Part shown: one piece after another, positions 7,073-64,000 of the stretch | How the letters are laid out: every line of letters begins with the position of its first letter | Position numbering within the stretch: position 1 is the first letter of the stretch | Assembly (NCBI GenBank): GCA_963737065.1 | Contig: CAVTRC010000001.1 | Location: 288,001-352,000, forward strand | Reading direction: 5' to 3' | Source of the DNA: Candidatus Eremiobacteria bacterium | GTDB lineage: Bacteria > Vulcanimicrobiota > Vulcanimicrobiia > Vulcanimicrobiales > Vulcanimicrobiaceae | DNA: 64,000 nt | Notes under the pieces: model-generated | Told to the model about the DNA's origin: nothing | The model's input: the letters and a program-made list of their open reading frames with translations, nothing else | Databases searched by the model: none | Translations under genes and position numbers: made by a program

Positions 7073-7708
7073 TCATTGCGTTCTTGTGATGGTTACGCCT
7101 TGCGTTGCGATATCGATTTCGTCGGGGACGAGCGTCGTGGGACTGTACCAGACGGTAAATGGCGCGTGCTGCGACTGAAACGAAAGCGCGACGTCGCTTG
7201 CGGGCACTGAGGCCGGGCGCGTTGGCGTTTGTTTGGTATCGGGCGCGATCACGATCGACTGCCCGAATGACGGAACGACGGCGCAGACGCTGGCGTTCTG
7301 CCACGCTTGCATTTGCGCCGGAAGCGGCACAAAGCCCGCAACGGTGCCGAGATCGACGACGACAAAGTGCTTCTGCTGCGGCGTCAATTTGAATGTCGCC
7401 GCCGTTCCCTGCGCGTTGGTCACTTGCGCCGTATCGCCGGATACCGTCGCCGAATCGGAAACGGGGTTGCCGGCCATCGTTCCGGTTGCCTTGTAACTCT
7501 CCGGCGATAAGTCGGCGTTGAGCACCAGCGTCGCGCTCGCGTTGCCCGAGGTCCCGCTGTACGAACCGGCGGTCTGTTCGCTGACTTGCATCGATCCATT
7601 ACTGCTCGTGACCGTGACTTTCGACGTGCCGACGTCGACACCGTGATATGACGTTTTATAAGTATAGCTGCCGGCGGCGAGATTCGCCGCTAAAAGAAGA
7701 CCGATCAT
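7073..7708 (-). CDS. Secreted hypothetical protein
   Basis: Signal peptide MIGLLLAANLAA, GGAGG SD, start overlaps upstream stop. Confidence 0.8.
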   Translation of the reverse strand: MIGLLLAANLAAGSYTYKTSYHGVDVGTSKVTVTSSNGSMQVSEQTAGSYSGTSGNASATLVLNADLSPESYKATGTMAGNPVSDSATVSGDTAQVTNAQGTAATFKLTPQQKHFVVVDLGTVAGFVPLPAQMQAWQNASVCAVVPSFGQSIVIAPDTKQTPTRPASVPASDVALSFQSQHAPFTVWYSPTTLVPDEIDIATQGVTITRTQ

Positions 7709-45098: not shown

Positions 45099-45392
45099 TC
45101 GCGAGCGTATGCGGGCGCCCCGTTATCATCGGACAAACCGCTCATGGTCGTCACCGGATGGTAAAAGCTTTCTTTCAATAACGGTGATCAATGGCGTCAA
45201 AGCGATCGATACGTCTTCCATCGGTCGCTCATACCGCGCGACAACGATTTGCGGTGGCCAAGAAGCGTTCGAAATCATCCGAAAGCCTATCTTTGCCCCT
45301 CGCCGAATCAAAGCTCCGCTAAGAGGATGGCGCCAGATCGTTGCTGGGCGCCTGCCGTTGCAACATCGGGCGTTCTGCGGTATGATGGACAA

Positions 45393-45845
45393 ATGGCCAC
45401 TGAGGCTTGGACAAATGTCCCCCACCAGCCCTCCGACCGGATCATAGTTCAATTACTGAACGGCTGCGACGTCTCCGATTCAGAGGTTGTCGATGCAGTG
45501 TCACGGTCGTTCAACGTTGATGCCGTACGCGCACTCTTTGCGACCGGCCTCAGCGTCGAAGAGGTAGCGAAAGTGCTCGGCCTCAGCGACCGCACGCTTC
45601 GGCGCTACTTGAAGAACGGAAACGCCCCTCTCAGTCTCGTCGAAAGCGACCGACTTGTTCGCATTGCTCGGATCCTCGGGTTCGCCTTCGCCGCCTTCGG
45701 CGACCACGTGAAGGCGCTGGGATGGCTCCGCACACCGGTATGGGCCGTCGGGAACCGCGTTCCCCTTGATCTGATCGCGATTGAGAGCGGCGTACAGATG
45801 GTCCGTCAATCGCTTAGCGCAATTGCGTACGGAGGCGTCGCCTGA
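45393..45845 (+). CDS. Xre/MbcA/ParS-type antitoxin
   Basis: HTH (VAKVLGLSDRTLRR), ESDRL.R.AR, A..WL..P....G...PL, ends YGGVA. Confidence 0.9.
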   Translation: MATEAWTNVPHQPSDRIIVQLLNGCDVSDSEVVDAVSRSFNVDAVRALFATGLSVEEVAKVLGLSDRTLRRYLKNGNAPLSLVESDRLVRIARILGFAFAAFGDHVKALGWLRTPVWAVGNRVPLDLIAIESGVQMVRQSLSAIAYGGVA

Positions 45846-49881: not shown

Positions 49882-50547
49882 TCACGTCCGAGTAGCCACC
49901 ACTTCTTTCGTTTGCGACACGGCGTATTTTCCGTACAGCATGTCGGTGTGGATTTTGTAGCCGTGCCCGGCGATATCGAGCGCCGCATGCTTCGGAAGCA
50001 TGTAGCTGCGTTCGCGTTGCTCCTGGATAGCCGCTTTGACGGACCATCCGCCACGCACCGTCCACGTCGCGAGGATCGGCGACGACGGCCCGGCAGCGTC
50101 GATCACGAGGCGCTGGACTTGTGAAGAGCGCGCGCGCGGAACGCCCGCAATAACGTACTGGTGATGTATCGGATCCGCGCTCACGACGTGAAGGTTGTAC
50201 GTCTTGCACCACGTCAGCGGCGTACCGAGTTCGCCGAACAACGACTTGAAGCGCTTCGGGACGCCCTTTCCGTCAAACGCGACGTTCGCCGGCGCTGTAT
50301 AGTGCACGCGCCCGTTCATTCCCATATGAAACGAGAAAATGAATTTGTGGACCGATACCTTCAGCGTCAGCGGCACCTTGTATGCCGCGATCCCGCGGTC
50401 GTTCCCCATCTGCGAAAACAGCGGTACCGCGCTTAAGCCGTCCGAAGGACGCGCTGAACTTGCCGCCCCGGCAAGCGAATTCATCGAAAGTACTGCAGCA
50501 AATGCTGCAGCGACCGGAACCAGATTCTTACGAGGAAGACGACGCAC
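49882..50547 (-). CDS. Secreted hypothetical protein (LolA/LolB-like beta topology possible)
   Basis: Signal peptide from GTG 50547; TATAAT at 50552-50557 on the minus strand. Confidence 0.7.
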   Translation of the reverse strand: MRRLPRKNLVPVAAAFAAVLSMNSLAGAASSARPSDGLSAVPLFSQMGNDRGIAAYKVPLTLKVSVHKFIFSFHMGMNGRVHYTAPANVAFDGKGVPKRFKSLFGELGTPLTWCKTYNLHVVSADPIHHQYVIAGVPRARSSQVQRLVIDAAGPSSPILATWTVRGGWSVKAAIQEQRERSYMLPKHAALDIAGHGYKIHTDMLYGKYAVSQTKEVVATRT

Positions 50548-50609
50548 GTTTATTATATTCCCACCGCATATACCGCGACCGCGCTGCCCGCGCGGACGTG
50601 CGCGGAAGC

Positions 50610-50625
50610 GGTGACACGTGTCATA
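50610..50625. promoter_or_regulatory. CRP-box-like palindrome GGTGA-CACGTG-TCATA
   Basis: 8/10 match to TGTGA-N6-TCACA, between the Crp gene and a divergent gene. Confidence 0.45.
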
Positions 50626-50687
50626 TGCGCGGCCGGCCGGCGCTGCTAAACGGGTATAAATAATCCAGCAACGTACGGAGGCACACC

Positions 50688-51422
50688 ATGCGGACGGTTG
50701 AACGCGGCGAGACGCTCGCGATGCTGGCGAGATCGTCCATTTTCGGCTCGTGCGACGAGAACATACTGTCGTTGCTTGTCGAACACGCATCCGTCCACTT
50801 CGCGGAGCGAGGCACGGTGATCGCGGGCGCCGGCAAGCCGTTTCCCTATGTCGGCCTCGTCTCCAAAGGCATTGTCAGCGTTACCGTAAACGCGAATACA
50901 CCGGCACGTTCCGTCCGGCGCGTCGAGCTCTACGAGGCGCGCGACGGCGGTGTCTTCGGCGCCGCCGGTTTCTTCGGATCCGCGCCGCCCTTGGGCGACA
51001 TCGTCGCGATCGCCCGGCGCACGACGTACGTGCTCATTCCCGCAAGCACGCTAAAACGCGCGCTCTCGATGGACCGCCGGCTTTTTTGGCGCATGACGTC
51101 TGCGCTCGCTACGCGCGTCCGCGCGATGGCACAACAACTTACTGCGACCAAAGGTCTTCCCGCGACCGCACGTGTCGCTTCGGTTCTCCTCCGGTTCACG
51201 TCCGACCAAGACGGGCTGCAGCCCGCGCATGCCGCGCTCGCAACGATTACGCACCGCGACATCGCAGCGGCAGCGGCATGCGTGAAGGAATCCGCAGCAC
51301 GCGCAATCTCGAAGCTCGAGTCAGCCGGTGCGCTGCGTCGTGAAAAGGGACACATCACATATCTCGATCGCGGCGTCTTATCGCACTGCGCGGAGATGAC
51401 CGGGACCGGCTCGGCGCTTTAG
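50688..51422 (+). CDS. Crp/Fnr-family transcriptional regulator
   Basis: Degenerate cNMP domain; HTH ITHRDIAAAAACVKESAARAISKLE..G. Confidence 0.85.
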   Translation: MRTVERGETLAMLARSSIFGSCDENILSLLVEHASVHFAERGTVIAGAGKPFPYVGLVSKGIVSVTVNANTPARSVRRVELYEARDGGVFGAAGFFGSAPPLGDIVAIARRTTYVLIPASTLKRALSMDRRLFWRMTSALATRVRAMAQQLTATKGLPATARVASVLLRFTSDQDGLQPAHAALATITHRDIAAAAACVKESAARAISKLESAGALRREKGHITYLDRGVLSHCAEMTGTGSAL

Positions 51423-51423
51423 C

Positions 51424-51696
51424 ATGGTTCGCATCGTTCTCGATGGAGAGTTGGATCTGAGCGCAAAAGACGCTCTAACCGAGCGACTCCATGAGGCGAC
51501 CGATGCGGACGTCGCTGTCATCGACCTCTCTCGCGTAACGTATCTCGATAGCACGGCGATCCATTGCTTCATTGAGCTGAAAAACCGCATGATCGGCCGC
51601 GGGCACGCCGGAGTCGTCAAACTGCTCTCTCCGCACGATCGCATCCGGAAAATTTTTGAGCTATGCGATCTCAACCGCTTGTTCCCAATCGTGTAA
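51424..51696 (+). CDS. STAS-domain anti-anti-sigma factor
   Basis: GELDL, IDLSRVTYLDST, IF.LC.L. Confidence 0.9.
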   Translation: MVRIVLDGELDLSAKDALTERLHEATDADVAVIDLSRVTYLDSTAIHCFIELKNRMIGRGHAGVVKLLSPHDRIRKIFELCDLNRLFPIV

Positions 51697-51804
51697 AGCG
51701 CTCCAGGGCATTATGCCTGCACGTAGCGCGCCCGCTTTCGCACGCTGCCGCACGAACTGCACACGTTTCGACGGCGCGGCGGAAGGGCAAGCAACTGAAG
51801 GCCA

Positions 51805-52338
51805 ATGACGAAGAACGCCGAGCAACTCATGACGCGAGTGCGTGCACGCGATACGGATGCGTTCGAAGCGCTGTACGACGCGCATCATCGGCTCGTGTAC
51901 GGACTAGCTGCTCGCATGCTAGGCGACGTTTCCGGCGCTGAAGACGTAACACAAGCGGTGTTTTTGAAGGTATGGCTGGCGCCAGACCGATTTCACGGCG
52001 GGAATTTTCCGGCATGGATCGCGCGCATAACGCGCAATCGCGCGCTCGACGTGTTGCGCACACGAAGCACTCGCGAGTGTGAGCTTCCGTTCGCTATGTC
52101 CGAAGACGTCCCACTGGAAGAAACGGCGTTTGCGAATCTTGATGCCGACATCGTGCGCCGTGCGGTTGCAGCGCTGCCGCAAGAGCAGCGTGAGCCGATC
52201 GAACTCGGCTTCTTCAGCGGCATAACGTACGAAGAAATTTCGCGGCGAAGCGGCGTTCCGCTCGGAACCGTTAAAACGCGTATCCGCATGGGATTGAGAA
52301 AGCTGCGCTCCTTACTCGAAGGAGCGGTAACGGTATGA
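51805..52338 (+). CDS. ECF RNA polymerase sigma factor (SigK-like)
   Basis: AFEALYD, AEDVTQ.VFLKVW, W...I.RNRA.D, LGFF.G.TY.EI....GVPLGTVKTRIR. Confidence 0.93.
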   Translation: MTKNAEQLMTRVRARDTDAFEALYDAHHRLVYGLAARMLGDVSGAEDVTQAVFLKVWLAPDRFHGGNFPAWIARITRNRALDVLRTRSTRECELPFAMSEDVPLEETAFANLDADIVRRAVAALPQEQREPIELGFFSGITYEEISRRSGVPLGTVKTRIRMGLRKLRSLLEGAVTV

Positions 52339-53066
52339 ACGGCGCACACGCGGACATGCTCGATGAAGTCGCCGTGTACGTGCTCGGAACGCTGCCCGAG
52401 GATGAGAGCGAACGCGTGCGCCGGCACATCGAATCATGCAGCGATTGCCGGGCGGAATACGAGGCGCTTCTCCCCGTCGTCGGTGCACTGGCCCGGGTTG
52501 CTGAAGCGCCCGCCGGCGCCGCGATCGGCTCAACTGATGCGTCGTCCTTACTGAAGGCGCGCATCATGCGTGAGGTTCGTCCGAGTAAGCGTAACACCGC
52601 GTTGCCGGCGTATCTCGTGGCCGCGGCCTGCGCGGTGATCGCACTCGGCTTCGGCTGGGAGACTTTGACGCTCGGAAAACAGCTTCACAACGTACAAGAG
52701 TCGTATTCCTCGATTGCGCGAGCGCATACGAACGACGAGAGCGCATTGGCTGACTTAGTGAGCGCACGGGCGAAGCGGTATATCGTTCCGGGCGGTGAAA
52801 TCGTGAAGTCAAACAATCGCATATACATTGCGATGAGCCATATGCCGAAGCCACCGGCTGGGAAAGTCTATCAAGCGTGGACCCAGCCGCACGGGTCGAA
52901 GACGATGGTTCCCGGACTGACGTTTGTGCCGAACGATCGCGGTGTAGCAATCGTACGAGTCTCGTCCGATGCAAGCGCGTTGCACGCGGTCGCGGTCAGC
53001 ATCGAGCCACCGGGCGGAAGTAAAGCTCCCACAACGTCCCCGGTGGTCGTCGAAGTCCTCGACTGA
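52335..53066 (+). CDS. Anti-sigma factor, ZAS + TM + RskA-like domain
   Basis: HxxxCxxC (HIESCSDC), TM helix, P.GKVYQAW, AVSIEP.GGS..PT. Confidence 0.92.
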   Translation: MNGAHADMLDEVAVYVLGTLPEDESERVRRHIESCSDCRAEYEALLPVVGALARVAEAPAGAAIGSTDASSLLKARIMREVRPSKRNTALPAYLVAAACAVIALGFGWETLTLGKQLHNVQESYSSIARAHTNDESALADLVSARAKRYIVPGGEIVKSNNRIYIAMSHMPKPPAGKVYQAWTQPHGSKTMVPGLTFVPNDRGVAIVRVSSDASALHAVAVSIEPPGGSKAPTTSPVVVEVLD

Positions 53067-53103
53067 TGATTTGAACGAACCGTCCGGTTCGGTCTACATG
53101 AAC

Positions 53104-54427
53104 CTATAAATGTTGGTCGAGCGACGCCAACTCTGTACGAGCCTGCTGTGCGTACGTTGGATCGAATTGCGGGTTCTCCGCGAGTGCCGAACTGGAGAAG
53201 CGACCGCGCTCTTATCGTCTGCCCGTCGTGCAGCGCGATCATTGCTGCATGATACCGTATGCGGGGATCTTGCGTGTTATATCTGGTCGCGAGGCGTATA
53301 GCGTTCCGCGCCATCGTCCATTGTCCGGCCGCAGCCGCACACCAGGCGAGCGTATCTTGCGCATAGATTTCGTCACCGCGATGCGCCACCTCGCGTTGCG
53401 CGATGTGTAAGCCGTCCGCAACCCGTACACCGTGTTCGCAATAGTAGACCGCAAGAAGACGATCGTTGATGTGATAGGCATTTCCAAGCCGCTCGACCGC
53501 GTAGATCAAGTCGCGCGTTCGTTGAGCGGCCGCCGCGTCGCCGAGTGCGTTTTGCGCGTCGCTCTCGTATCCTAGGATCTCCGGCTCCGGAACGATATTC
53601 GCGCCGGTTTGCGCAGATTTGAGCGCGCATTCCCAGTCGCGGCTTGCCCAACAAAAGCGCGCGAGGGCACGGTATGCCATTTCAAAATTACCGAACTGCG
53701 ATATCGCAACACGCTCCTCGCGCTCGGCGGAAGCAACGTCGCCCGCCGAAAATGCGAGTTCACCCGCGCGAAAATGATACCAGGCACGTGCTTGTGCCGA
53801 ATTGTCGGCTACAGCGTCGGATTGCGCGGTAGCGCGCGCTAGCGCTGTGCGCGCGCGTTCGAGATTGCCCGTGAGCTCGTCATATCGAGCTTGAACCGCT
53901 AGGACGGTTGGCGTCACATGGATTGCGGACGCGATTCGAAGATCGCGCGCTGCGGCCCGGTAATCGCCAAGCTCCATCTGCAGCGACGCCATCTGCGAGG
54001 GCGCATTTGAGTCATTGGGTTGATCCGCGTGCGCGGCTGTCTCGTACGCCAACGCCGTCGGAAAAAGGTGCAGCGCCGTATATGCCGATGCTGCGATTTC
54101 GTCCGCTGCAGCATTGTTTTGCGGTTGTAGCTTAAGGGACCGCTTCGCGTCGCGTATCGCGCGCAGAATGTCGGCTACATCCTGTTCTTCGCGGTAACGT
54201 TGCATGTACTGCGCCGCCAGAAGTTTCGCGCTGATTTGATCCTGCGGATATGCCCGCACACGCTGCTCGTAAAATGCGATCGTCGCGTTTCGAAACGTGT
54301 AATCGGGCAGCACCGGCGCAACGTACGCCTGAGCCGACGCCGGCCGGTGCGACGCGAATACCGGCCATGCGGCGACTGCTATAATTGCAGCCGCCGCTAT
54401 GATCGTCGTCGAGATGCGAAGCTTCAG
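53104..54427 (-). CDS. Secreted TPR protein (CTG start; 1-nt insertion near 53190)
   Basis: Paralog of 56082-57386; corrected C-terminus SALAENPQFDPTYAQQARTELASLDQHL*; AGGAG SD before CTG overlapping upstream TGA. Confidence 0.82.
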
Positions 54428-55143
54428 TGAGGTGCTCCTAAGTAGGGGAACGCCGTCGTGAAATGCTTCGGTGCGGTTTGCCACGATACGTGATCCGACG
54501 TGAGGTCGGGGCGGTGCCCCGACGGGTACGTCGCGTCAGCTCGTCCATCGGACTCTTTCATATCGTCGGGGGCGAGTCCAAGGCTCGGAATCGTTTTTCC
54601 GAAAATCGTTCCAAGCGAGAGATCAACCACGTCGTCCGTGAGCGCGCGACCGCCGAATGGCTTTAACGCCGCCGGCGCTTGCGTGGCGCCTTTCGTTTCA
54701 ATGCCAAGGTAGTTGTTGCACGTGCCCGGAGCAGTGCCGATACACGATTGGCTTGTTCCGGAGAGATCGACGATTTGCACGTCCGGCGTCAGCACGCTTC
54801 GCTCGACGGTCGCGATCGCGGTGCTACGGCCGGCAACGTTCGTCATGAACGCCATGATTTGAGGACCAAGGACGGCCGCATCTTGATTAGGAGTATCGAT
54901 ATTGTTCCCTTGATGCTCGGCGAACGTCGCGAACACTTCGTTAACGGCCGGCCGATTCAAACGGTCGAGTTGCTTGTACGGGCCGGCGCCCAATGATGTT
55001 AGTTCCGGATTGCCGCCCGGGGGATTCGATGGTGCAACGGGTGCTCCACCGTTTGGCGATGTGGTGCTGCCTCCACCCGAACAGGATATGAGCAGAAGCG
55101 ATGCGGCAAGAGAGACGGTAGCTGAAAATAGTATACGTCGCAT
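54424..55143 (-). CDS. DUF4331-family lipoprotein (C-terminal half)
   Basis: Lipobox LISC; QLDRLNRPAVN, GGR.L.DDVVD.SL, FPYLG.PH. Confidence 0.85.
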   Translation of the reverse strand: MRRILFSATVSLAASLLLISCSGGGSTTSPNGGAPVAPSNPPGGNPELTSLGAGPYKQLDRLNRPAVNEVFATFAEHQGNNIDTPNQDAAVLGPQIMAFMTNVAGRSTAIATVERSVLTPDVQIVDLSGTSQSCIGTAPGTCNNYLGIETKGATQAPAALKPFGGRALTDDVVDLSLGTIFGKTIPSLGLAPDDMKESDGRADATYPSGHRPDLTSDHVSWQTAPKHFTTAFPYLGAPH

Positions 55144-55150
55144 CGTTCAC

Positions 55151-55909
55151 CTAGCTCCCACTCGACGTGTATGTCGTGACCCAGTATGCGATCTTCGGTC
55201 CGTTGCAGCCGGCGATCAAATCGGCACGCGGCATCTCAATGACGATCGAGAGCACGTTGTAACCCGTGAAAAAGTCTTGTCCCGGATCGTTGAATCCCTG
55301 AGGACACGTTCCGTTTCCGAGTTTCGGAAGGCAGCTTGGCGCCATGCTTCCTCTGTTGCGATCGGGAAGTATTTTAAGGAACTGCGCCAGATCGAAGAAG
55401 AACGGCTCTTCGCGGGCGCCCGCGAAAACCTGCATATCGCCGACCTTGAAGGGCTGGCCGATCGTTCCTTGCCCGGTCATCGGCACGAGCGATGCTTGAT
55501 TTCCAAGCGATACGGGGTGCGCGGGCCCGTTGACGTAGATCGGTTGATTTGCACCCGGTTGACCCGCTACGACCTGGATCACGAACGATTGGTAAATGCT
55601 TTGCGATGGCGTCATCGTGTTCTCGTCTTCGCCATCGAAGTTCATTTGGTAGATTACGCCGGGATCGAAGAACGTGGAGGAGCCCTGGCCGCTCGGGATG
55701 AGCGGATGGACGTTCATCACCATGACGACGTTCTTGGCGTTGTCCGGCGCCGGGAAAATGTATGGATCGGTAATGTCGGCGCCCGGTCTACCGATAGTGA
55801 CGGGGGAGTCTTGATGATCGGAAGCTCTCGCGGCAAACGTCATATACAGTCCGAAAGCAAGCACGAGAGTTGCGAGCATCGCGACGCCGCCGAGCAGTCG
55901 CGATTTCAT
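55151..55909 (-). CDS. DUF4331-family secreted protein (N-terminal half)
   Basis: ASDHQDSP, ADITD.Y.F, FAG.R.EPFFFD, NVLSIVIE.P. Confidence 0.88.
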   Translation of the reverse strand: MKSRLLGGVAMLATLVLAFGLYMTFAARASDHQDSPVTIGRPGADITDPYIFPAPDNAKNVVMVMNVHPLIPSGQGSSTFFDPGVIYQMNFDGEDENTMTPSQSIYQSFVIQVVAGQPGANQPIYVNGPAHPVSLGNQASLVPMTGQGTIGQPFKVGDMQVFAGAREEPFFFDLAQFLKILPDRNRGSMAPSCLPKLGNGTCPQGFNDPGQDFFTGYNVLSIVIEMPRADLIAGCNGPKIAYWVTTYTSSGS

Positions 55910-55954
55910 AGATTGGTAATCGCTCCGTTGAAGGAAATTCCGAGTAATGGGGAC

Positions 55955-55982
55955 ACAACGGCCGGGATCGATAGGCGGATGT
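55955..55982 (-). promoter_or_regulatory. ECF-type promoter ACATCC-N16-CGTTGT
   Basis: Upstream of split-DUF4331 operon; same motif as four other copies. Confidence 0.7.
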
Positions 55983-56047
55983 AACGACGCGCGATTTAGG
56001 GTCGGAAGCCCTAAGCAAACCCGGTAAAGGGCCTATACCAAAAAAGG

Positions 56048-56076
56048 CAATCCATACCGCGCGTCTGCACGTTGAT
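56048..56076 (+). promoter_or_regulatory. ECF-type promoter CAATCC-N16-CGTTGAT
   Basis: Ends 5 nt before GTG 56082. Confidence 0.8.
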
Positions 56077-56081
56077 ACCTC

Positions 56082-57386
56082 GTGCGCGCGTTTCGTGTAA
56101 TCGCCGTTATTGCGGCGGTGGCAATCATACTCTGGCCATTTTTCGGGAACCGGCATGGAGACGCGGCTGCATTCCAAGCCCCGATAACACGCGACTATCT
56201 CGTGCGCGATCGTGTCATCTCGTTTTACGAGCGGCGCATGCGTGAAGATCCGGCTGATGGTTTGAGTGCGCGTTTGCTTGCGAGCCAGTATCTGCAGCGC
56301 TACCGCGAAACACTCGACGTTGGGGATGTCACGCGTGGCATCGGCGAAGCCGCATATTCGCTTCGCCGGCAACCCGCGCACAACGCAGCCGCAGACGAAC
56401 TCGCTGCATCGGGATACTACGCGCTCCACGATTTCACGCGCGCATTGTATTTTGAAAATCTAGCGCACGGTACCGATTCGGCCGATGCAAACGCTCCCTC
56501 GCAGATGGCCCTGCTCGCGATGGAGTTGGGGCACTACGCGCAGGCACAATCGTTCATCCGGGAGGCGGCGCGCGCGGGCGCAGGGCCGGCGGAATGGTCG
56601 GCGGAGGCGCGCTATGACGAATTGACGGGATCGATCGACTCCGCCAAAGCCCTAATGGAGCGCGCCGCGCAACGAAGCGATGCGGTGATCGACACGCCGG
56701 CGTCCTCTCGAGCTTGGTACCACGTTCGTCTTGGCGAGATGGCTTTCGCGACCGGCGACGTTAACCGTGCAGAAGCCGAGGAGCATATCGCGCTCGTCGA
56801 CTTTCCTCGATACGAACTCGCATATCGAGCGCTAGCGCGATTCTGTTGGGCGGACCGTGACTGGCGTTGCGCGCTCGATACGGCGCGAACCGGCGCGCAG
56901 ATTCTTCCCGAACCCGAAATTCTCGGTTACGAGAGTGATGCGCAACGTGCGCTCGGCGACGTTCAAGGCGCGCGTCGAACACGAGACCTTATCTTCGCCG
57001 TTGAACGCATCGGCAACGCCTACCACATCAACGATCGCCTTCTGGCGACATATTATTCGGAACATGGTGTCCGGCTCGAAGACGCGTTTGCGATCGCACA
57101 GCGAGAAGTAACGCTCCGCGGAACCGAGATCTTCGCACAAGACACTTTTGCTTGGGCCGCGGCAATGGCCGGTCGTTGGGCGATCGCCGACCGCGCAAGC
57201 GCGAACGCCATGCGGTTTAACACCCAAGACTCACGGATTCTTTTCCACGCGGGCGCTATCGCGTATCACTTCGGTCGAACGGCGCGCGCTCGCGCGCTGC
57301 TGCGGCGCGCCCTCGCGCTAAACGCGCATTTCGATCCTTTCTACACCGTGCAAGCGCAAAGCATGCTTGCTACACTCTCGCAGTAA
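56082..57386 (+). CDS. Secreted TPR protein
   Basis: N-terminal hydrophobic segment, TPR helices, QD..AW, .FHAG.I; paralog of 53104-54427. Confidence 0.88.
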   Translation: MRAFRVIAVIAAVAIILWPFFGNRHGDAAAFQAPITRDYLVRDRVISFYERRMREDPADGLSARLLASQYLQRYRETLDVGDVTRGIGEAAYSLRRQPAHNAAADELAASGYYALHDFTRALYFENLAHGTDSADANAPSQMALLAMELGHYAQAQSFIREAARAGAGPAEWSAEARYDELTGSIDSAKALMERAAQRSDAVIDTPASSRAWYHVRLGEMAFATGDVNRAEAEEHIALVDFPRYELAYRALARFCWADRDWRCALDTARTGAQILPEPEILGYESDAQRALGDVQGARRTRDLIFAVERIGNAYHINDRLLATYYSEHGVRLEDAFAIAQREVTLRGTEIFAQDTFAWAAAMAGRWAIADRASANAMRFNTQDSRILFHAGAIAYHFGRTARARALLRRALALNAHFDPFYTVQAQSMLATLSQ

Positions 57387-57407
57387 CATCGGAGCAACCA
57401 CACAACA

Positions 57408-58688
57408 ATGAGATCGTCGTCTCGCCTCGCTTTCCCGATCTTTGCCGTGTTCCTCGCCGTTGTCGCACTCACGCTGTATCTACCGCGGACGGCGCGCACT
57501 TCCGACCATCAAGACTCGCCGCTGATGGTGGGGCGTCCCGGCGCGGACATCACCGACGTGTTCGTCTTTCCCGCAGCGAACCCCAATGATGTCGTCCTCG
57601 CAATGAACGTTCATCCCTTGATCGCCGCTGGAACGTACAGTACGGTATCGTTCGATCCTGGGGTTATGTATCAGTTCAAAATCGCGACGAACGGCGGCTA
57701 TCGTGAAAATAAAGTCATCCAGTTCCGTGCAATCGGATCGGGCCCGTCGCAACGCATTGAGATGTATGGGCCCGCGGCACCGGCAACACCGGGAACGGTC
57801 TCGCAGTGGGCCGGCTCACCGCAAACGTTCACCGTTAATCGCAAGGCGCAACTCTCCGGCGGGATCATCGCGATGGCCGGTCCAAGGCAAGACCCTTTCT
57901 ATTTCGATCTGGCCCAGTTCCTCAAGATCGTTCCTGACCGCAGCTATAAGTACCACCCGCCGGCGGGGAACGGCGTGCCGGCGCCCTCGGCGCGGTGTTT
58001 CCGCAAGCCGGGTGTCGATACGCTGCGCGGTTACGATGTTCTATCGTTCGTCGTAGAACTGCCGCGCCGGATGCTCGCCAACTCCAACGGAAAACTCGGC
58101 GTTATTCGTGTCTACGCGACCACGTCAACCGAACAGAACGGCCGATGGATTCAGGTGGAGCGGCTCGGGCGTCCTGCGGTGAAGGAAGCGTTTCAAATGT
58201 ATGAGCGTCACGACGCGACGAATCGGAGTGCTCCGTGGAACGATCCGCTGCTGCCGCACGATATCATTTCGTTTATGACGTCGCCGCGCGCCGCGCACCG
58301 TTCGATGCAACTCGCGAAAGCCGTAGAAGCCGTACTGATTCCTGATGAAATGGAAGCAGATCTCTCCGCCGACGGACCCGCGCGTTATCTTGCTGTCGAG
58401 ACGAAAGGCAAGAGCGGACTGCCTACCGGCATCGTGCGAGTTGTCCCGGACTTTCCGCTCGGCGGCGTGAAGAAAGCGTTGAAGAACCCCTACCGTGATT
58501 TCGGCGGCCGCGATCCATCGAGCCCGGTCATCGATCTTTCACTCGGCATCATTTTCGGAACGCTCGGTGAAAAGGTCGGACTAGCGCCGCCCGACGGGCA
58601 ACAGACCGATTGTCTCACGAGCGACAACGTTCAACCACCGGATCGAGGCGTAACAAAAACGTTCCCATATCTCGGCGTGCCACTCTAA
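57408..58688 (+). CDS. DUF4331-family secreted protein (full length)
   Basis: SDHQDSP, ADITDVFVF, GPRQDPFYFD, QVERLGRPAV, TFPYLG.P. Confidence 0.9.
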   Translation: MRSSSRLAFPIFAVFLAVVALTLYLPRTARTSDHQDSPLMVGRPGADITDVFVFPAANPNDVVLAMNVHPLIAAGTYSTVSFDPGVMYQFKIATNGGYRENKVIQFRAIGSGPSQRIEMYGPAAPATPGTVSQWAGSPQTFTVNRKAQLSGGIIAMAGPRQDPFYFDLAQFLKIVPDRSYKYHPPAGNGVPAPSARCFRKPGVDTLRGYDVLSFVVELPRRMLANSNGKLGVIRVYATTSTEQNGRWIQVERLGRPAVKEAFQMYERHDATNRSAPWNDPLLPHDIISFMTSPRAAHRSMQLAKAVEAVLIPDEMEADLSADGPARYLAVETKGKSGLPTGIVRVVPDFPLGGVKKALKNPYRDFGGRDPSSPVIDLSLGIIFGTLGEKVGLAPPDGQQTDCLTSDNVQPPDRGVTKTFPYLGVPL

Positions 58689-58711
58689 GAGTGCGCGCGC
58701 GATCGTCTGCA

Positions 58712-59206
58712 TCACGAGTGGGGCAGCGCGTCGAGTTCGTCGACGTTGACGTATCCGCGGTGTCGCGGTGGCGGCGGTGAAGTGACGACGATTCCCGCCG
58801 TCTGAATTTTGCCCGGAAGCGTGCCGCTGTCGTATACAAGCACGTGCGTTTGTTTCCGTGGCGCATAGAAATCGACGCTTTGCGGACGCCGGCCGGGGAT
58901 GACGACGCTTCCGGTGCCGCCGTTCTTCCCTCGGATACCAAAGATCCGCAAACGGCTTCCCGAAAAAACGATGGTAATGGAATCGCCGCCGTCGAAAGAG
59001 CGCGCGCTCTCGCCATGAAACCGTCCGTCGTCGCGATGGATGATCTGCCAACGGCCCGAGTACCGAACGTCCAAGATAGATTTTTCGTGTTCCGCGGCTA
59101 CCGACTGTACAACGGCCGACGCCGCGGCGGCCTGCGCCGCCCGTGGATCGGCCGCGTGACAGTCGACCAGCAGCGTTACGGCAACCGTCGCGGCCAAAAC
59201 CTTCAT
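58712..59206 (-). CDS. Putative lipoprotein with galactose-binding-like jelly-roll domain
   Basis: LVDC lipobox-like; YSG.W, GDS....F.G....IFG......G...V. Confidence 0.7.
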   Translation of the reverse strand: MKVLAATVAVTLLVDCHAADPRAAQAAAASAVVQSVAAEHEKSILDVRYSGRWQIIHRDDGRFHGESARSFDGGDSITIVFSGSRLRIFGIRGKNGGTGSVVIPGRRPQSVDFYAPRKQTHVLVYDSGTLPGKIQTAGIVVTSPPPPRHRGYVNVDELDALPHS

Positions 59207-59757
59207 TGAGTCGGATACGCTCGGTGCAAATCCATTATCGCTGCGGAAAGGATCACGTGAAATTCGGCATTGTTTCGAGGGCCGACGGCGGTATCGGCAT
59301 CCGCCTCGTGCATCAACGTAATGTGCATAGGCCGCGAAAGCATGTGTTCGAGCATATACCCGACGTCATATCGGCCATCCGGCATGACACCCGCATTGTA
59401 CAGTGAACGTGCCAGCGTAGGCGCCGGCGGAACGGATGCGTCGGGAAGGGAGATATGCTGACGTTCTACTTGGATAACGGCAAGGTGCACGAATGCGTCA
59501 AACGTTTTGAAAAACTGAGCGACGTTTGCCGCGCCGAATCGATGTTGAAGCGACGCGCTTTCCTTCGCCATATCCGGTCCCGCCAGATACGCAACGAGCT
59601 TCTCCGACGAAAACGATTTGGCGCCGCCACCGGCGGCGATCATTTGCGCGGTCAACGTCAGATCGGGCTTACCATAGTATCGCCCGTGCGATGCATTCAT
59701 CGCCGCTGACGAAGCACCATGAGTCAACGCCGCTGCCATCAAAAGCCCGAAAACCAT
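59203..59757 (-). CDS. Secreted helical hypothetical protein with His/Met cluster
   Basis: Signal peptide; Y.G.PDL.LT...I.AGGG...FS; EHMLSRPMHITLMHE. Confidence 0.8.
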   Translation of the reverse strand: MVFGLLMAAALTHGASSAAMNASHGRYYGKPDLTLTAQMIAAGGGAKSFSSEKLVAYLAGPDMAKESASLQHRFGAANVAQFFKTFDAFVHLAVIQVERQHISLPDASVPPAPTLARSLYNAGVMPDGRYDVGYMLEHMLSRPMHITLMHEADADTAVGPRNNAEFHVILSAAIMDLHRAYPTQ

Positions 59758-59842
59758 TATCACCGCCTCTCGTAGTCGCCGGTTGCTATTTTGCGTTTTC
59801 CCTCCAACCGGTGAATCGTTCCTTCCCTCGATGGATGGAGCA

Positions 59843-59871
59843 CAATCCGTCGCGCCGGCATCAACGTTGAT
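59843..59871 (+). promoter_or_regulatory. ECF-type promoter CAATCC-N16-CGTTGAT
   Basis: Ends 5 nt before ATG 59877. Confidence 0.8.
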
Positions 59872-59876
59872 TGCGT

Positions 59877-60071
59877 ATGGATCACGACGAGCGACACCAC
59901 TCGCATGTGCATGCGCATCTTGACGGCACGGTTCATTTTCACCGGCACGAACATGGCGGTTTCGATCACGAACACGAGCACGAGCACGAGCACGGAAACA
60001 ATCGGCAGGCGTTCGTCGGCGTGTCGAAAGCAAACAAAGAACGCGCGGACCCCGGCGCTCGGACATCGTAA
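59877..60071 (+). CDS. His-rich 64-aa putative metal-binding peptide
   Basis: 15 His in the first 39 residues; own promoter motif; TAATG overlap with next gene. Confidence 0.75.
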   Translation: MDHDERHHSHVHAHLDGTVHFHRHEHGGFDHEHEHEHEHGNNRQAFVGVSKANKERADPGARTS

Positions 60072-60403
60072 TGCCGCGCAGAAAAGGCTCTGGCCGACTG
60101 GGACCTGTACGGTCGCTTCGACTACCGCTCGCCTTGGAACGCTGGTTCGGAGCGACTCTTTGCCTGCGGCCCGATCACTCGGCGAGCAGTCTGTTACTTG
60201 AGCTCGTACATGGAGGTCTGCGCCTCGCCCCGGGGTACATGCGGCGACACGCGGCAGCACTGCTCGCGCTTGAACGTGACGGTGCAGCGATCGCACGCGA
60301 AAACTACGCGCGCGCGCTCGGCGATACGTTCGGCGAACGGTATGTTGCACATGTCGAGGCGTGGATTCAAAGCGAGCGCGGCACTATCACCGCGTCGAGG
60401 TAA
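60071..60403 (+). CDS. Hypothetical protein, possible ribbon-helix-helix N-terminus
   Basis: VRSLRLP-helix-S.S.LL.ELV pattern; translationally coupled to His-rich peptide. Confidence 0.65.
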   Translation: MPRRKGSGRLGPVRSLRLPLALERWFGATLCLRPDHSASSLLLELVHGGLRLAPGYMRRHAAALLALERDGAAIARENYARALGDTFGERYVAHVEAWIQSERGTITASR

Positions 60404-60417
60404 ACAACACGCCAAAA

Positions 60418-62703
60418 TTATGGGGTGAAGGAATATTGCACCCGAACCGTACGAGCTTCCGACGGATGGAAATGATAGTCGTTTATACCGGCGCCGCCGA
60501 GTGCGGGATTCACGCCGGCGTTGTGGACGTTCGCGAGGCTGGCGTCTTGCGGCAACCAGGAGGCGTAATAGTACGTAACGTCGTCCGGGTGCGCGTTTAA
60601 GACATTAAAGAGTCCGATCGTCAACCGCCGGCGTCCAGAGAGTTTCGCCGTGTATTCCGCGTTCAGCAGCGTAGACGGGCTGGAGTACGCGTCGCCTTGC
60701 GTATCCAGTGGACGGGGGCCAAAATAGCGCATGCGAACACTGGCCGCATAGTGCGGCTTGTCGACCGTAACGCCGAGCGACGCGACCGCGCTCAGTGATT
60801 CGGGAACAAACGTTCCTCGACCGTCCGGATTCGTGAGGAACCGCGCAGCCGAATCGGCAATGTCCGCGTCGATCACAAGCCATTTCGTCGGGCGATAGTT
60901 GTTGGCAAATTCGATGCCTTTGCGCCGGCTCGGACCGCCCAGAGACGTCGTACCGTGATCGCCATCGAAGATCAGTTCATTCGCCTGAAACAGCTGCCAC
61001 AACGACACCGTGCTGACCAGTTTATCGTTTGTGAAGCGATAGCCGACCTCATCTCCAACCGACCGATTCAGCAGACCGTTCTGAGCGACAGCCGTGCCCG
61101 TATAGTCGAACCGTTCGTGCGTCTGCGGATCGTCGATGTATGTCACGCCGCGCACGTCGTTTGAGTGAAAGCTTTCTCCGAAGTCGAGATACAACTCGTT
61201 TCTTGAGTTGATTGTATAAGCAACGTTCATCTTTGGACTAATGAGACCGGCTGATCCACGACCGCTATTTTTCGGGTCGTACGCGGCATCGCTGTAACCG
61301 TACACGTCGGCTCGGATCCCCGGATCGATTCTCCATTTACTGGAGAGCCGGAGTTTCGACTGGATATAGATATAGGCGGGCCGCTCAACCACGTGATCGT
61401 CACTAAGGGTTCCATCACGAAATCGCTCGCGATCCCTTACAAGAAACAAGCCGACGGTCGGGATGTTGAAGTTTGTGAATCCTGCTCCGAAGGTCGTCGT
61501 GCTACCGGGAGTATCGACGGTCCGGGTAACGTTTAACCCCTCGAAGAAGCGATTGTCGAGCTGTTCCCGCTGGTCGCCGCACTGAAAGTTGTAGGAGACG
61601 GGCGTAAGCGATCCGGGCGCCGCACCCGCCGGCGCCGTATACGCGGGGCAGTACGAAGCGTAGTTCGGTGCTCGTAGTCTGCTTGTCCCATTCGCGACGC
61701 ATGTGGTATATGCGGTGTTACACGTGATGGGGTTGGCGGTTTCGTTGAAGTAATTCGTCGCATCGTAGAAATCGTAGGTGAAGTTCGAGAAAAGGTCGAG
61801 CCGGTACGCGACTGCATAGGCGTCGACCGCAAACGATCCATTGTGTACGTTGCGCGTCCATTGCGTCGAAAGCGTGAAGTAGCTCGTCGTGCCACCGTCG
61901 CTCGCATCGATGTAGCCGAATCGGCTAAGTTCGTCATCGTCGACGAGGCGCTGCGGAATTTGGTCGCTCGAGTCAAACGTGCCGCTATAGGCGCTCGCAG
62001 TGGCCGTGAAGCTGCCACTCGGACGCACCACGCTGTAGCGAAAGACGCCGTCGTATTTATTGTATTCGTCGGGCTTAACGAATGAGCCGTTATCGTGATA
62101 GACCTCGATCGCGTACAGCAGATTGCCCGCACCGCTCGGATGCGACGCCGCGGTGAAAAACCGGTCATATCCGAAGTCGCCGATTCCAACCGACGTCGTG
62201 GCCGCGATCGTGTCGCGATAGTAGACGTTGTAAGAACCAGCCGTAGAGAAGTCGCCTTGATCGGCGTAATACGTTCCTTTTTTGTATTCGACATTGTTTA
62301 CCAGCTCGGGCATCAGCCAATTGATATCCGAGTAGCCCTGGCCGTGAGCGTGCGTCGGCAGGTTGACGGGAATCCCGTTCACCGTGGAGTCGAGATCCGT
62401 TCCGTGATCGAGCTGAAAGCCGCGTAGATAGTATTGATTCGCCTTGCCTTCGCCGCTGTGTTGGCTGACGACGAGTCCCGGGATTTGCTCTAGTATTTCG
62501 CCCGGACGCAAGATCGGACGCGTCGCGATGTCTTGTTGACTGATGAAACCTTCCGAGGCCGCCGTCGCCGTGCCGATCAGGTTCGTGCTGCGGCCGGTCG
62601 TTTTGACGTTGCCGATCAGCTTGAGCGGAGGCGGAGATGGCGAGGGCGTGGGCGACGGTGTGACGATCGCGAGCGTTGCGCTGAAAAGCACGACAAGCAG
62701 CAT
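60418..62703 (-). CDS. TonB-dependent receptor
   Basis: Plug QHSGEGKANQYYLRGFQLDHGTD, HAHGQGYSD, barrel strands, HP.E.RTVR..YSF C-terminus. Confidence 0.93.
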   Translation of the reverse strand: MLLVVLFSATLAIVTPSPTPSPSPPPLKLIGNVKTTGRSTNLIGTATAASEGFISQQDIATRPILRPGEILEQIPGLVVSQHSGEGKANQYYLRGFQLDHGTDLDSTVNGIPVNLPTHAHGQGYSDINWLMPELVNNVEYKKGTYYADQGDFSTAGSYNVYYRDTIAATTSVGIGDFGYDRFFTAASHPSGAGNLLYAIEVYHDNGSFVKPDEYNKYDGVFRYSVVRPSGSFTATASAYSGTFDSSDQIPQRLVDDDELSRFGYIDASDGGTTSYFTLSTQWTRNVHNGSFAVDAYAVAYRLDLFSNFTYDFYDATNYFNETANPITCNTAYTTCVANGTSRLRAPNYASYCPAYTAPAGAAPGSLTPVSYNFQCGDQREQLDNRFFEGLNVTRTVDTPGSTTTFGAGFTNFNIPTVGLFLVRDRERFRDGTLSDDHVVERPAYIYIQSKLRLSSKWRIDPGIRADVYGYSDAAYDPKNSGRGSAGLISPKMNVAYTINSRNELYLDFGESFHSNDVRGVTYIDDPQTHERFDYTGTAVAQNGLLNRSVGDEVGYRFTNDKLVSTVSLWQLFQANELIFDGDHGTTSLGGPSRRKGIEFANNYRPTKWLVIDADIADSAARFLTNPDGRGTFVPESLSAVASLGVTVDKPHYAASVRMRYFGPRPLDTQGDAYSSPSTLLNAEYTAKLSGRRRLTIGLFNVLNAHPDDVTYYYASWLPQDASLANVHNAGVNPALGGAGINDYHFHPSEARTVRVQYSFTP

Positions 62704-62713
62704 GGTTGTGCCG

Positions 62714-62742
62714 ACAACGTTCTTCCGCGCGCATTCAGATTG
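62714..62742 (-). promoter_or_regulatory. ECF-type promoter CAATCT-N17-CGTTGT
   Basis: Ends 10 nt upstream of the TBDR ATG; slightly degenerate copy. Confidence 0.6.
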
Positions 62743-62831
62743 AATTTGCCGTTATTGTCTACGAAATTGCACTGGCAAGCGCCCTGTCGTTGATTTTCGT
62801 CAGCTCGTTACGACGAATTTCGCTGACGTGG

Positions 62832-62860
62832 CAATCCAACCGGCGTCTTTGCTCGTTGAT
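62832..62860 (+). promoter_or_regulatory. ECF-type promoter CAATCC-N16-CGTTGAT
   Basis: Upstream of the Ni/Co transporter gene. Confidence 0.8.
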
Positions 62861-62891
62861 AGCGCATATCGTGACCGGTCGGGGAGGCAGA

Positions 62892-64000
62892 GTGCGTTCG
62901 GGTCTTTGGAGCGGAGTAGTTGCCTGTCTCGTTTTGCTTTTCGCCGCCGGTCAACCGGTCGAGGCGCATCCGCTTGGGAATTTCACGATCAATCGCCTGG
63001 TTGAAGTCCGCGCAACGTCCGGAATGCTGCACGTTCGATACGTGGTCGATCGGGCGGAAATCCCGACCTTTCAGCTCATGCGCGCTTCATCGACCGACGC
63101 AAGCTGGACGCCCGCCCAGCTTCGTGCATGGGCAGATGAACAGCCCGCGCTCATCACCGAAGGGTTGAATGTTCTCGTCGACGGACGGCGCGCGCCGTTG
63201 CGGCCCGCCGGCGATTTTGCGAAACTGCGACCCGGGGCGGGTGGCCTGCCGATCCTCTACTGGTCAGGCGCCTTTACTACGCCGCTCTCCGACGGTCGCC
63301 ATCACATCGTCGTAGAAGATCGCGTGTTCGACGCGAATCGCATTGGGTGGAAAGACGTCGTCATCGCGCCCCAGACTGAGCCGACGCACGAACTGCTTTC
63401 GTATCCACCGGCGCTCATTTCTTCACCGCGCGCCGTGGAATCGGCGTCGTTTGATCTGTCGGCAACCGCCGGCGTCTCGCACATTGTCGATAATGTCGAT
63501 GACAACGGCGAAGGCGCGTCATCGGGTGTCTCAATTGTCAGGTCGAATGCGCTTTCCGACATGTTCGCGAACCCCAACCGCGCGCCGCTCTTTCTGTTAT
63601 TGACGGCGCTTGTCGCGTTTGGGCTCGGCGCACTGCACGCAATTGAACCCGGTCATGGCAAGGCGCTGCTGGCGTTCACGTTGGTTGGATCGCGCGCAAC
63701 CGTTAAACAAGCAGCAATTCTCGCGGCGTCTCTTACGTTCGCTCATACGATCGGCGTGCTCGTGCTCGGCGTCGTGCTCTTCTTCGCCGCCGGGTTCGCA
63801 ACCGAGTCGATCTATTCGTGGATAACGTTGATCTCCGGTATAGCGGTCGCTGTCATCGGCGCGAGAAATCTTTCGCGATATCTTCATGCGCGCGGGATAC
63901 ACGCCCACGGCGACGGCCACGTTCACGCGCATGATGCGCACGATCATCACCATGGTGATGCCGCGCACGCGCATTCGCACGCGATTCCGGGAACGCGGCC
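62892..64000 (+). CDS. RcnA/NicO-family nickel/cobalt transporter with N-terminal periplasmic domain (partial)
   Basis: GGGGAGG SD, GTG 62892; signal peptide then HPLGNFTIN; LGALHAIEPGHGK, AHTIGV, His-rich loop; open to window end and absent from ORF track. Confidence 0.92.
   Translation, partial: MRSGLWSGVVACLVLLFAAGQPVEAHPLGNFTINRLVEVRATSGMLHVRYVVDRAEIPTFQLMRASSTDASWTPAQLRAWADEQPALITEGLNVLVDGRRAPLRPAGDFAKLRPGAGGLPILYWSGAFTTPLSDGRHHIVVEDRVFDANRIGWKDVVIAPQTEPTHELLSYPPALISSPRAVESASFDLSATAGVSHIVDNVDDNGEGASSGVSIVRSNALSDMFANPNRAPLFLLLTALVAFGLGALHAIEPGHGKALLAFTLVGSRATVKQAAILAASLTFAHTIGVLVLGVVLFFAAGFATESIYSWITLISGIAVAVIGARNLSRYLHARGIHAHGDGHVHAHDAHDHHHGDAAHAHSHAIPGTR

Follow-up and report, generated by a model that had tools for sequence, protein, structure and literature searches.

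RskA-like anti-sigma factors mark the extracytoplasmic function (ECF) sigma factor groups ECF18, ECF19, ECF214 and ECF290, according to a published classification and its supplement (Casas-Pastor et al. 2021, PMC7826278). That supplement gives TGCATCTT / CGTA as the ECF18 motif and, as typical of ECF19, ATC in the -35 element and CG or TG in the -10 element. It also lists DUF4331 as a conserved genomic neighbour of ECF18s13 and ECF214s1, a SelR (msrB) domain at position +2 of ECF18s11, and STAS anti-anti-sigma genes at position -1 in ECF19s7 and ECF19s18, where the anti-sigma is of a different kind. For SigK, a second study describes a conserved binding site and the mpt83-sigK-rskA cassette, and reports a pair of sigma-4 cysteines in 94% of ECF18 and 56% of ECF19 members (Veyrier et al. 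2020, PMC7509140). Here we analyze a 64,000-nucleotide stretch of DNA (the window; positions 288,001 to 352,000 of contig CAVTRC010000001.1, assembly GCA_963737065.1) from Candidatus Eremiobacteria bacterium, an uncultured soil bacterium of the Eremiobacterota (WPS-2), in which five copies of an ECF-type motif precede gene units close to the gene for a SigK-like sigma factor, sigma A. We consider it likely, with a probability of roughly 0.8 drawn from the comparisons below, that RNA polymerase bearing an ECF sigma factor of the SigK/RskA type uses these sites as promoters, as part of the regulon proposed here.

The proposed mechanism is that of a standard ECF sigma/anti-sigma switch, which is expected and will not surprise specialists. 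Like SigK-RskA of Mycobacterium tuberculosis and the ECF19 and ECF18 groups, the locus combines an ECF sigma factor with an adjacent, apparently single-pass RskA-type anti-sigma and an ATC / CG(T) motif; the sites, which were selected by pattern, carry ATC in the -35 and CG or CGT in the -10 element, as do target promoters of the SigK-like clade. As with SigK, the regulon is small, with a conserved site before the sigma gene and before genes for secreted proteins. It differs from SigK-RskA in that sigma-4 has no cysteines, the adjacent sigma copy is not autoregulated, and DUF4331, NicO, TonB-receptor and msr genes take the place of the fasciclin-type mpt70/mpt83 as targets. The M. tuberculosis SigK consensus is reportedly CCATCC-N16-CCGAAT. 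It does not appear in the available portions of PMC4105308 and PMC4821874.

A further comparison is with RpoP of Cupriavidus metallidurans (ECF18s4), in that the present cluster includes NicO Ni/Co-type permeases and a His-rich protein; the metal link here comes from domain names only. ECF sigma regulons that contain methionine sulfoxide reductases are known in Neisseria and Caulobacter. The likeness to them is that msrA and msrB would come under an envelope-stress ECF sigma factor; the difference is that the msr genes of the present genome lie apart from the sigma gene and seem to be leaderless. ECF18s13 and ECF214s1 share with our locus the RskA-like anti-sigma and the DUF4331 context, but they are proteobacterial or from Bacteroidetes/Firmicutes, and the available parts of PMC7826278 describe no regulon, promoter copies or msr link for them. 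Of 20 Bacteroidota loci, six likewise have a sigma gene paired with an RskA-like gene no more than 6 kb from DUF4331 genes. What is added here is a regulon that is genome-wide, conserved across the class and centred on methionine-sulfoxide repair and DUF4331 clusters, with the adjacent sigma factor one of two likely readers.

Five motif copies and their rarity

The initial annotation had described five copies of one ECF promoter motif, and direct reading of the sequence bears this out. CAATCC-N16-CGTTGAT is present exactly at three places on the plus strand, ACATCC-N16-CGTTGT and CAATCT-N17-CGTTGT occur once each on the minus strand (the weaker and the weakest copy below), and the extended form GGCAATCCA...CGTTGATA is correct at 56046 and 62830. 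All five copies are intergenic and each is oriented toward the first gene of a unit. These copies and the neighbouring sigma and anti-sigma genes are:

56048..56076 (+), strong copy before the TPR2-DUF4331b unit, ending 5 nucleotides (nt) before GTG 56082
59843..59871 (+), strong copy preceding the genes for the His-rich and 110-aa proteins, ending 5 nt before ATG 59877
62832..62860 (+), strong copy before two NicO-family permease genes, with GTG 62871 10 nt on
55955..55982 (-), weaker copy before the split DUF4331a genes and TPR1, 45 nt before ATG 55909
62714..62742 (-), weakest copy before the TonB-dependent receptor gene, 10 nt before ATG 62703
51805..52338 (+), ECF sigma factor A, SigK-like, candidate reader, with Sigma70_r2 and r4 domains
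52335..53066 (+), anti-sigma factor A, RskA type, overlapping the sigma gene, with zf-HC2 and RskA_C

The sites, three strong and two weaker, have a -35 element resembling (C/G/A)AATCC and a -10 element CGTT(G/A), 16 nt apart. Exact copies of the 13-base pattern number three in the window and four in the whole genome (3,078,187 bases, both strands; G000 below), where by our own arithmetic about 0.1 copies would be expected by chance (6.2 million positions / 4^13). Three of the four genomic copies fall inside 6.8 kb, all three intergenic and gene-facing. The fourth (G000:C2:153124-153152 (-), or 7125-7153 (-) of locus L002) lies antisense within a 167-aa open reading frame (ORF) of unknown family. 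We rejected it as a promoter on account of this antisense position, with a beta-carbonic anhydrase gene approximately 370 nt downstream, and it is probably a chance match. Duplicated DNA was likewise rejected as the source of the three strong copies, whose spacers and flanks differ. A shuffle test in which two mismatches were allowed gave at least three matches in 33 of 100 shuffles; it is uninformative because all three real matches have no mismatch.

A weight matrix was built from 30 sites upstream of sigma genes (see below), with a 2-bit penalty for N17 spacing that was our own choice. It gave scores of 18.8 for the copy at 56048, 17.1 for 59843, 17.9 for 62832, 14.2 for 55955-55982 and, after the penalty, 11.2 for 62714-62742. 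Across the genome 23 positions reach a score of 17, 70 reach 14.2 and 124 reach 13.2, and the expectation for a given 150-nt oriented interval is 0.0006 to 0.003 such matches. A score of 11.2 is reached by 306 positions. The two weak copies are unremarkable genome-wide and notable only by location. No motif precedes the minus-strand genes at 59760-58712, even at low matrix thresholds, and between 50500 and 64000 the intergenic regions yielded no sigma-70-like promoter. A search of 50000-64000 for known RNA elements, such as the Ni/Co riboswitch, returned a single miRNA model far below its gathering score.

Conservation among relatives and a proposed genome-wide regulon

The motif is tied to this sigma family by comparison with relatives. 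NATCY-N16-CGTT lies about 45-75 nt upstream of the sigma gene at all 29 of the relatives' loci examined (L004-L032) and upstream of a paralog in the same genome, sigma B (L033). Published genomes supplied 24 of the 29 loci (24/24 with the motif), the others (L016, L022, L023, L024 and L026) being unpublished. The spacing is N16 at all 30 sites, and ATCY and CGTT are invariant in them, the sites having been chosen with a pattern that contains those letters. The SigK-type layout suggested in the initial annotation is supported: the motif is ECF-like, the neighbouring sigma factor is SigK-like with an RskA-type anti-sigma, and the family is linked to the motif by this comparative footprinting.

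The leaders of the sigma genes (L004-L033) have features of their own. In most relatives a conserved CGAGGGCA(C) block stands just after the -10 element, and another, resembling GAAGCGAAG, precedes the start codon, the two lying approximately 8-45 nt downstream of the motif (e.g. G000:C1:1150158-1150190). Both blocks are absent at the local target promoters.

The targets also keep the motif in many relatives. For DUF4331b, 21 of the 27 public loci that could be assessed have it no more than 350 nt upstream of the gene or of its co-directional operon and six lack it; one further locus is truncated at a contig end. At least 10 relatives have a sigma gene of this family and a DUF4331 gene no more than a few kb apart. 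The arrangement of sigma, TPR-DUF4331, NicO and TonB-receptor genes, each unit with its own motif, recurs in three genomes (G011, G013 and G022). In G011 the sigma/anti-sigma genes are divergent from TPR-DUF4331 with back-to-back motifs, the one before the TPR-DUF4331 unit being equivalent to the site at 56048, and the TonB-receptor orthologue has another motif in front of it. G013 and G022 carry a motif before an operon of the order NicO-NicO-DUF4331-TPR-DUF4331, and G013 has a CAATCC...CGTTGTA site before a 65%-identical gene, at the place matching the copy at 55955-55982. Orthologues of the NicO fusion are preceded by the motif at seven loci (L065, L066, L068, L079, L085, L088 and L106).

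The initial annotation had spoken of a local regulon, which proves too narrow. In G000 the motif is found in promoter position also before msrB (SelR), a signal-peptide-bearing msrA (PMSR), a cytochrome b561 gene that has a molybdopterin-oxidoreductase gene after it (an MsrPQ-like pair), and sigma B. The start codons of the first three lie 13, 15 and 12 nt, respectively, after the C of CGTT, and the promoter-compatible matches include three unlinked loci of methionine-sulfoxide-reductase type. In relatives the motif precedes msrA at 19 of 23 loci (G000 included), with the ATG 10-12 nt after CGT(T/A); both unpublished loci were negative, so that the published count is 19/21. For msrB it was found at 11 of 30 loci, including all seven genomes of the genus. 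An ORF beside the MsrPQ-like pair (L127 36-1058 (+), approximately G000:C1 1019535-1020557) is, unexpectedly for this phylum, a match to the HopA1 effector family of Pfam (E 1.1e-37).

Spacing to the start codon is short at several targets. The 5-nt gaps before GTG 56082 and ATG 59877, from which leaderless mRNAs had been proposed, are real, and both starts lie 12 nt from the C of CGTT, as do those of several orthologous units. Among 63 motif-to-ORF distances from the window and the Eremiobacterota loci, four are exactly 12, one is 13, one is 9 and the rest range from 15 to 232. The four include the TPR2 site; the His-rich site, also at 12, was left out by the 90-aa ORF cut-off. At the msrA and msrB sites the distance stays at 12-15 nt from genus to genus. 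Such spacing agrees with some of the targets having mRNAs that are leaderless or nearly so. The DUF4331a unit, with its 45-nt gap, and the NicO unit, for which GTG 62892 preceded by GGAGG is the better start, would have leaders.

Candidate readers and competing explanations

The genome has 18 matches to sigma-70 region 2. Sigma A has the composition of an ECF (group 4) sigma factor, with PF04542 and PF08281/PF04545 only in 177 aa, and scores 89.5 bits against TIGR02937 (cut-off 42.9). Its best relative of solved structure is M. tuberculosis SigK (4nqw, E 1.3e-23), and the best NCBIfam models are of SigK type, PRK12519 and PRK09646, both well below their cut-offs (133 vs 222 and 127 vs 226 bits). 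We call it SigK-like without a subgroup because these are proxies for the classification's own (ECF Hub) models. The anti-sigma at position +1 is RskA-like, with zf-HC2, RskA_C and one hydrophobic stretch seen in the alignment, and scores 121.9 bits against the NCBIfam anti-sigma model NF052375 (cut-off 100). Neither paralog has a cysteine in sigma-4, where a cysteine pair is not a defining trait of ECF19.

A search with sigma A in 60 relatives gave close matches in most of them. Sigma B, 73% identical, is encoded in the same genome 806 kb away (G000:C1:1150194), with CAATCT-N16-CGTTGAA upstream and its own RskA-type anti-sigma, 66% identical to anti-sigma A. The sigma-4 recognition helices of A and B differ by one conservative residue and, because they are so nearly identical, the two probably read the same motif. 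In a maximum-likelihood tree sigma A falls within the same-genus clade (support 100/99) on a long branch (0.26 vs about 0.06), and sigma B pairs with the G003 orthologue. This placement suggests that the sigma A pair is a recent duplicate.

Several observations weigh against the reading of the five sites as promoters of a SigK/RskA-type sigma factor, or against the adjacent copy as its reader. Two of the five copies are weak. Sigma A itself has no motif in the approximately 500 nt upstream of its gene (51300-51805), so that the signature of autoregulation seen at sigma B and at all 29 loci of the relatives is missing at the copy beside the cluster. The His-rich/110-aa pair lacks the motif at all 12 of the relatives' loci, msrB lacks it at 19 of 30, and a strict copy near the start of the TonB-receptor gene was found at one of eight relatives' loci (G011, GAATCC-N16-CGTTGAG, in the same relative place). 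Of the same-genus DUF4331 loci L050, L052, L055 and L056, the first three have no candidate within 300 nt, and the one in L056 has N17 spacing. The matrix is too uninformative for this genome, most of the 23 matches scoring at least 17 being inside ORFs, and the enrichment of promoter-compatible matches is modest (7/23 vs 78/711 at scores 9-13; Fisher p = 0.011). The matrix is also partly circular in its invariant columns, as the sites were picked by a regular expression holding the motif core, and the relatives are kin, so the counts overstate independent support.

The ORF map behind the enrichment figures is rough, and at least two good sites, the His-rich and the cytochrome b561 ones, are misclassified by it. 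Within the genus, DUF4331b has a best match of about 52% identity, compared with 75% in G011. None of the six same-genus genomes has a match to the TonB receptor and one of the six has the 110-aa gene; the cluster is patchy within the genus.

The proposal that the adjacent sigma factor reads the sites survives as a candidacy: sigma A is a plausible reader, sigma B has nearly identical helices, and only B carries the motif upstream. With no such site before sigma A, adjacency is the sole argument for it. The strongest competing explanation is that autoregulated sigma B is the working reader and that sigma A is redundant, weakly expressed or tuned to another input. Besides the upstream site, the near-identical helix and the grouping of B with the G003 orthologue while A sits on a long branch, it is favoured by G011, where a single pair must serve its own gene, the cluster and msrA. 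Yet a sigma/anti-sigma pair stands beside DUF4331 clusters in many relatives (G011, G013, G044, G049 and G052 among them), which points to a cluster-linked pair, and nothing indicates that sigma A is silent. We regard an exclusive role of B as a serious possibility that falls short of an even chance; from the sequences, either paralog could be the reader.

Alternatively, the weak copies at 55955-55982 and 62714-62742 may be chance matches, leaving three real promoters, with the minus-strand units served by other, unrecognised promoters. Their scores, reached by 70 and 306 genome positions, agree with this, as do the N17 spacing, atypical against N16 in all 30 sigma-upstream sites, and the seven of eight TonB-receptor orthologues that have no strict copy near the start. 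However, each weak copy stands back to back with a strong copy in the sole intergenic gap before its gene, where 0.002 to 0.008 matches would be expected by chance, clear N16 copies occupy the matching places in G013 and G011, and no alternative promoter was found for the minus-strand units. We therefore think it rather unlikely that both are fortuitous. Finally, conserved upstream motifs can be operators, and a Crp-family gene lies at 50688-51422, but a site for a conventional activator or repressor, with no promoter, is highly improbable for two short non-palindromic blocks at a fixed 16-nt spacing that always face a gene, often 12-15 nt before the start codon with no room for a separate promoter, have no accompanying sigma-70-like promoter, and track the sigma gene itself at all 29 loci of the relatives.

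Genes of the cluster and the proposed switch

The units that would be served by the five putative promoters comprise the following genes, listed with two others that lie among them:

52871..54484 (-), TPR1, membrane TPR-like protein, with weak TPR matches below Pfam cut-offs
54424..55143 (-), DUF4331a C-terminal part, a separate lipoprotein gene, DUF4331 profile positions 249-421
55151..55909 (-), DUF4331a N-terminal part, secreted, DUF4331 profile positions 103-236
56082..57386 (+), TPR2, membrane TPR-like protein, with weak TPR matches below cut-offs
57408..58688 (+), DUF4331b, full-length, secreted, function unknown (PF14224, E 9.8e-39)
58712-59760 (-), two secreted-looking proteins of no known family, inside the cluster and without a motif
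59877..60071 (+), His-rich 64-aa protein, from the translation
60071..60403 (+), conserved 110-aa protein of unknown family, its start overlapping the His-rich stop
60418..62703 (-), TonB-dependent receptor, Plug domain (E 3.3e-13)
62892..64000 (+), NicO-family permease with an N-terminal extracytoplasmic domain, continuing past the window to about 64415
L001:412-1209, second NicO gene, following the first, past the window end

The coordinates of TPR1 are those of the longest ORF; relatives align only from residue 40 onwards, and the true start is probably later. The N-terminus of TPR2, read from GTG 56082, is a hydrophobic helix. We rejected the idea that DUF4331a is a pseudogene. The C-terminal part has its own signal peptide with a lipobox, LLISC, and the N-terminal frame stops at the same place in a relative (L078). 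The break (54424-55909) recurs in relatives with varying stop codons, and DUF4331a looks like a conserved split gene. An AlphaFold2 model of DUF4331b, made from 24 sequences, has a mean pLDDT of 73.4 and a pTM of 0.78. Foldseek comparison of this model with the PDB gave nothing meaningful (best match 4jpq, TM 0.17-0.26); VIA-align in its wide mode reached a best Z of 7.1, the other matches being generic Ig-like sandwiches, in a range common for that tool, and an Atlas search returned only DUF4331 clusters.

The His-rich protein shows a repeated H-x-H-x-DGT-x-H pattern. The 110-aa protein, which has no Pfam or NCBIfam match, was found in 13 of 60 relatives, and a His-rich ORF lies upstream of its gene at 11 of 12 relatives' loci (8/9 published). 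TonB-receptor orthologues adjoin this pair in G014, G015, G023, G030 and G036. The module of His-rich, 110-aa and TonB-receptor genes occurs in several genera, with no ECF motif outside G000 and G011 (L188-L199, L203-L210). Upstream of the TonB-receptor orthologues of G023 and G015 (L204 and L208) we noted by eye CCATCC-N16-CGTC, in which the last T of the -10 element is replaced by C. The assignment of the permease rests on NicO (E 4.8e-07), a nickel/cobalt efflux model (E 3.6e-16) and a His-rich loop.

Some neighbouring genes deserve mention. A 30%-identical homologue of the 185-aa protein encoded within 58712-59760 (-) follows a motif in one relative (L081). The Crp-family regulator gene and a STAS-domain gene are directly upstream of sigma A (together 50688-51698 (+)), and STAS genes also stand beside DUF4331 clusters in two relatives (L076 and L081). 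Elsewhere in the window, 45249-45845 (+) encodes a protein with an Xre-like helix-turn-helix and a MbcA/ParS C-terminal domain, an antitoxin-type gene.

In the mechanism we propose, the RskA-type membrane anti-sigma would hold the sigma factor inactive until an envelope signal frees it. The freed sigma would switch on the five local units (TPR2-DUF4331b, the split DUF4331a with TPR1, the His-rich and 110-aa genes, the TonB-dependent receptor, and the two NicO-family permeases). Sigma of the same type would also drive msrB, the secreted msrA, the MsrPQ-like pair and the operon of sigma B and anti-sigma B, with pair A beside the cluster and the distant pair B probably reading the same motif. With local and distant targets taken together, the regulon would link a transport cluster, probably related to metals, to the repair of oxidised methionine. 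A bolder extension, which we offer as speculation and think improbable as a whole, is that two pairs with the same promoter specificity and diverged sensor domains form an OR gate on one regulon that couples the mending of oxidised envelope proteins (MsrA/MsrB/MsrPQ-like) to a TonB/NicO/His-rich metal module, and that DUF4331 is an unrecognised envelope partner of RskA-type signalling whose linkage to these sigma factors has persisted across Eremiobacterota, Bacteroidota and Proteobacteria.

Every related record that could be named is a metagenome-assembled genome and, because the Eremiobacterota are known here only from such assemblies, their gene regulation is readable from sequence only. 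A full-text literature search found no paper on DUF4331, and in the available parts of PMC7826278 its connection to sigma factors appears only in the context lists of the supplement. For these bacteria the present analysis provides a well-footprinted assignment of a sigma factor to its promoters and a testable regulon, which suggests a role in methionine-sulfoxide repair and probably in metal handling, and it places the uncharacterised family DUF4331 under what would be SigK-type control.

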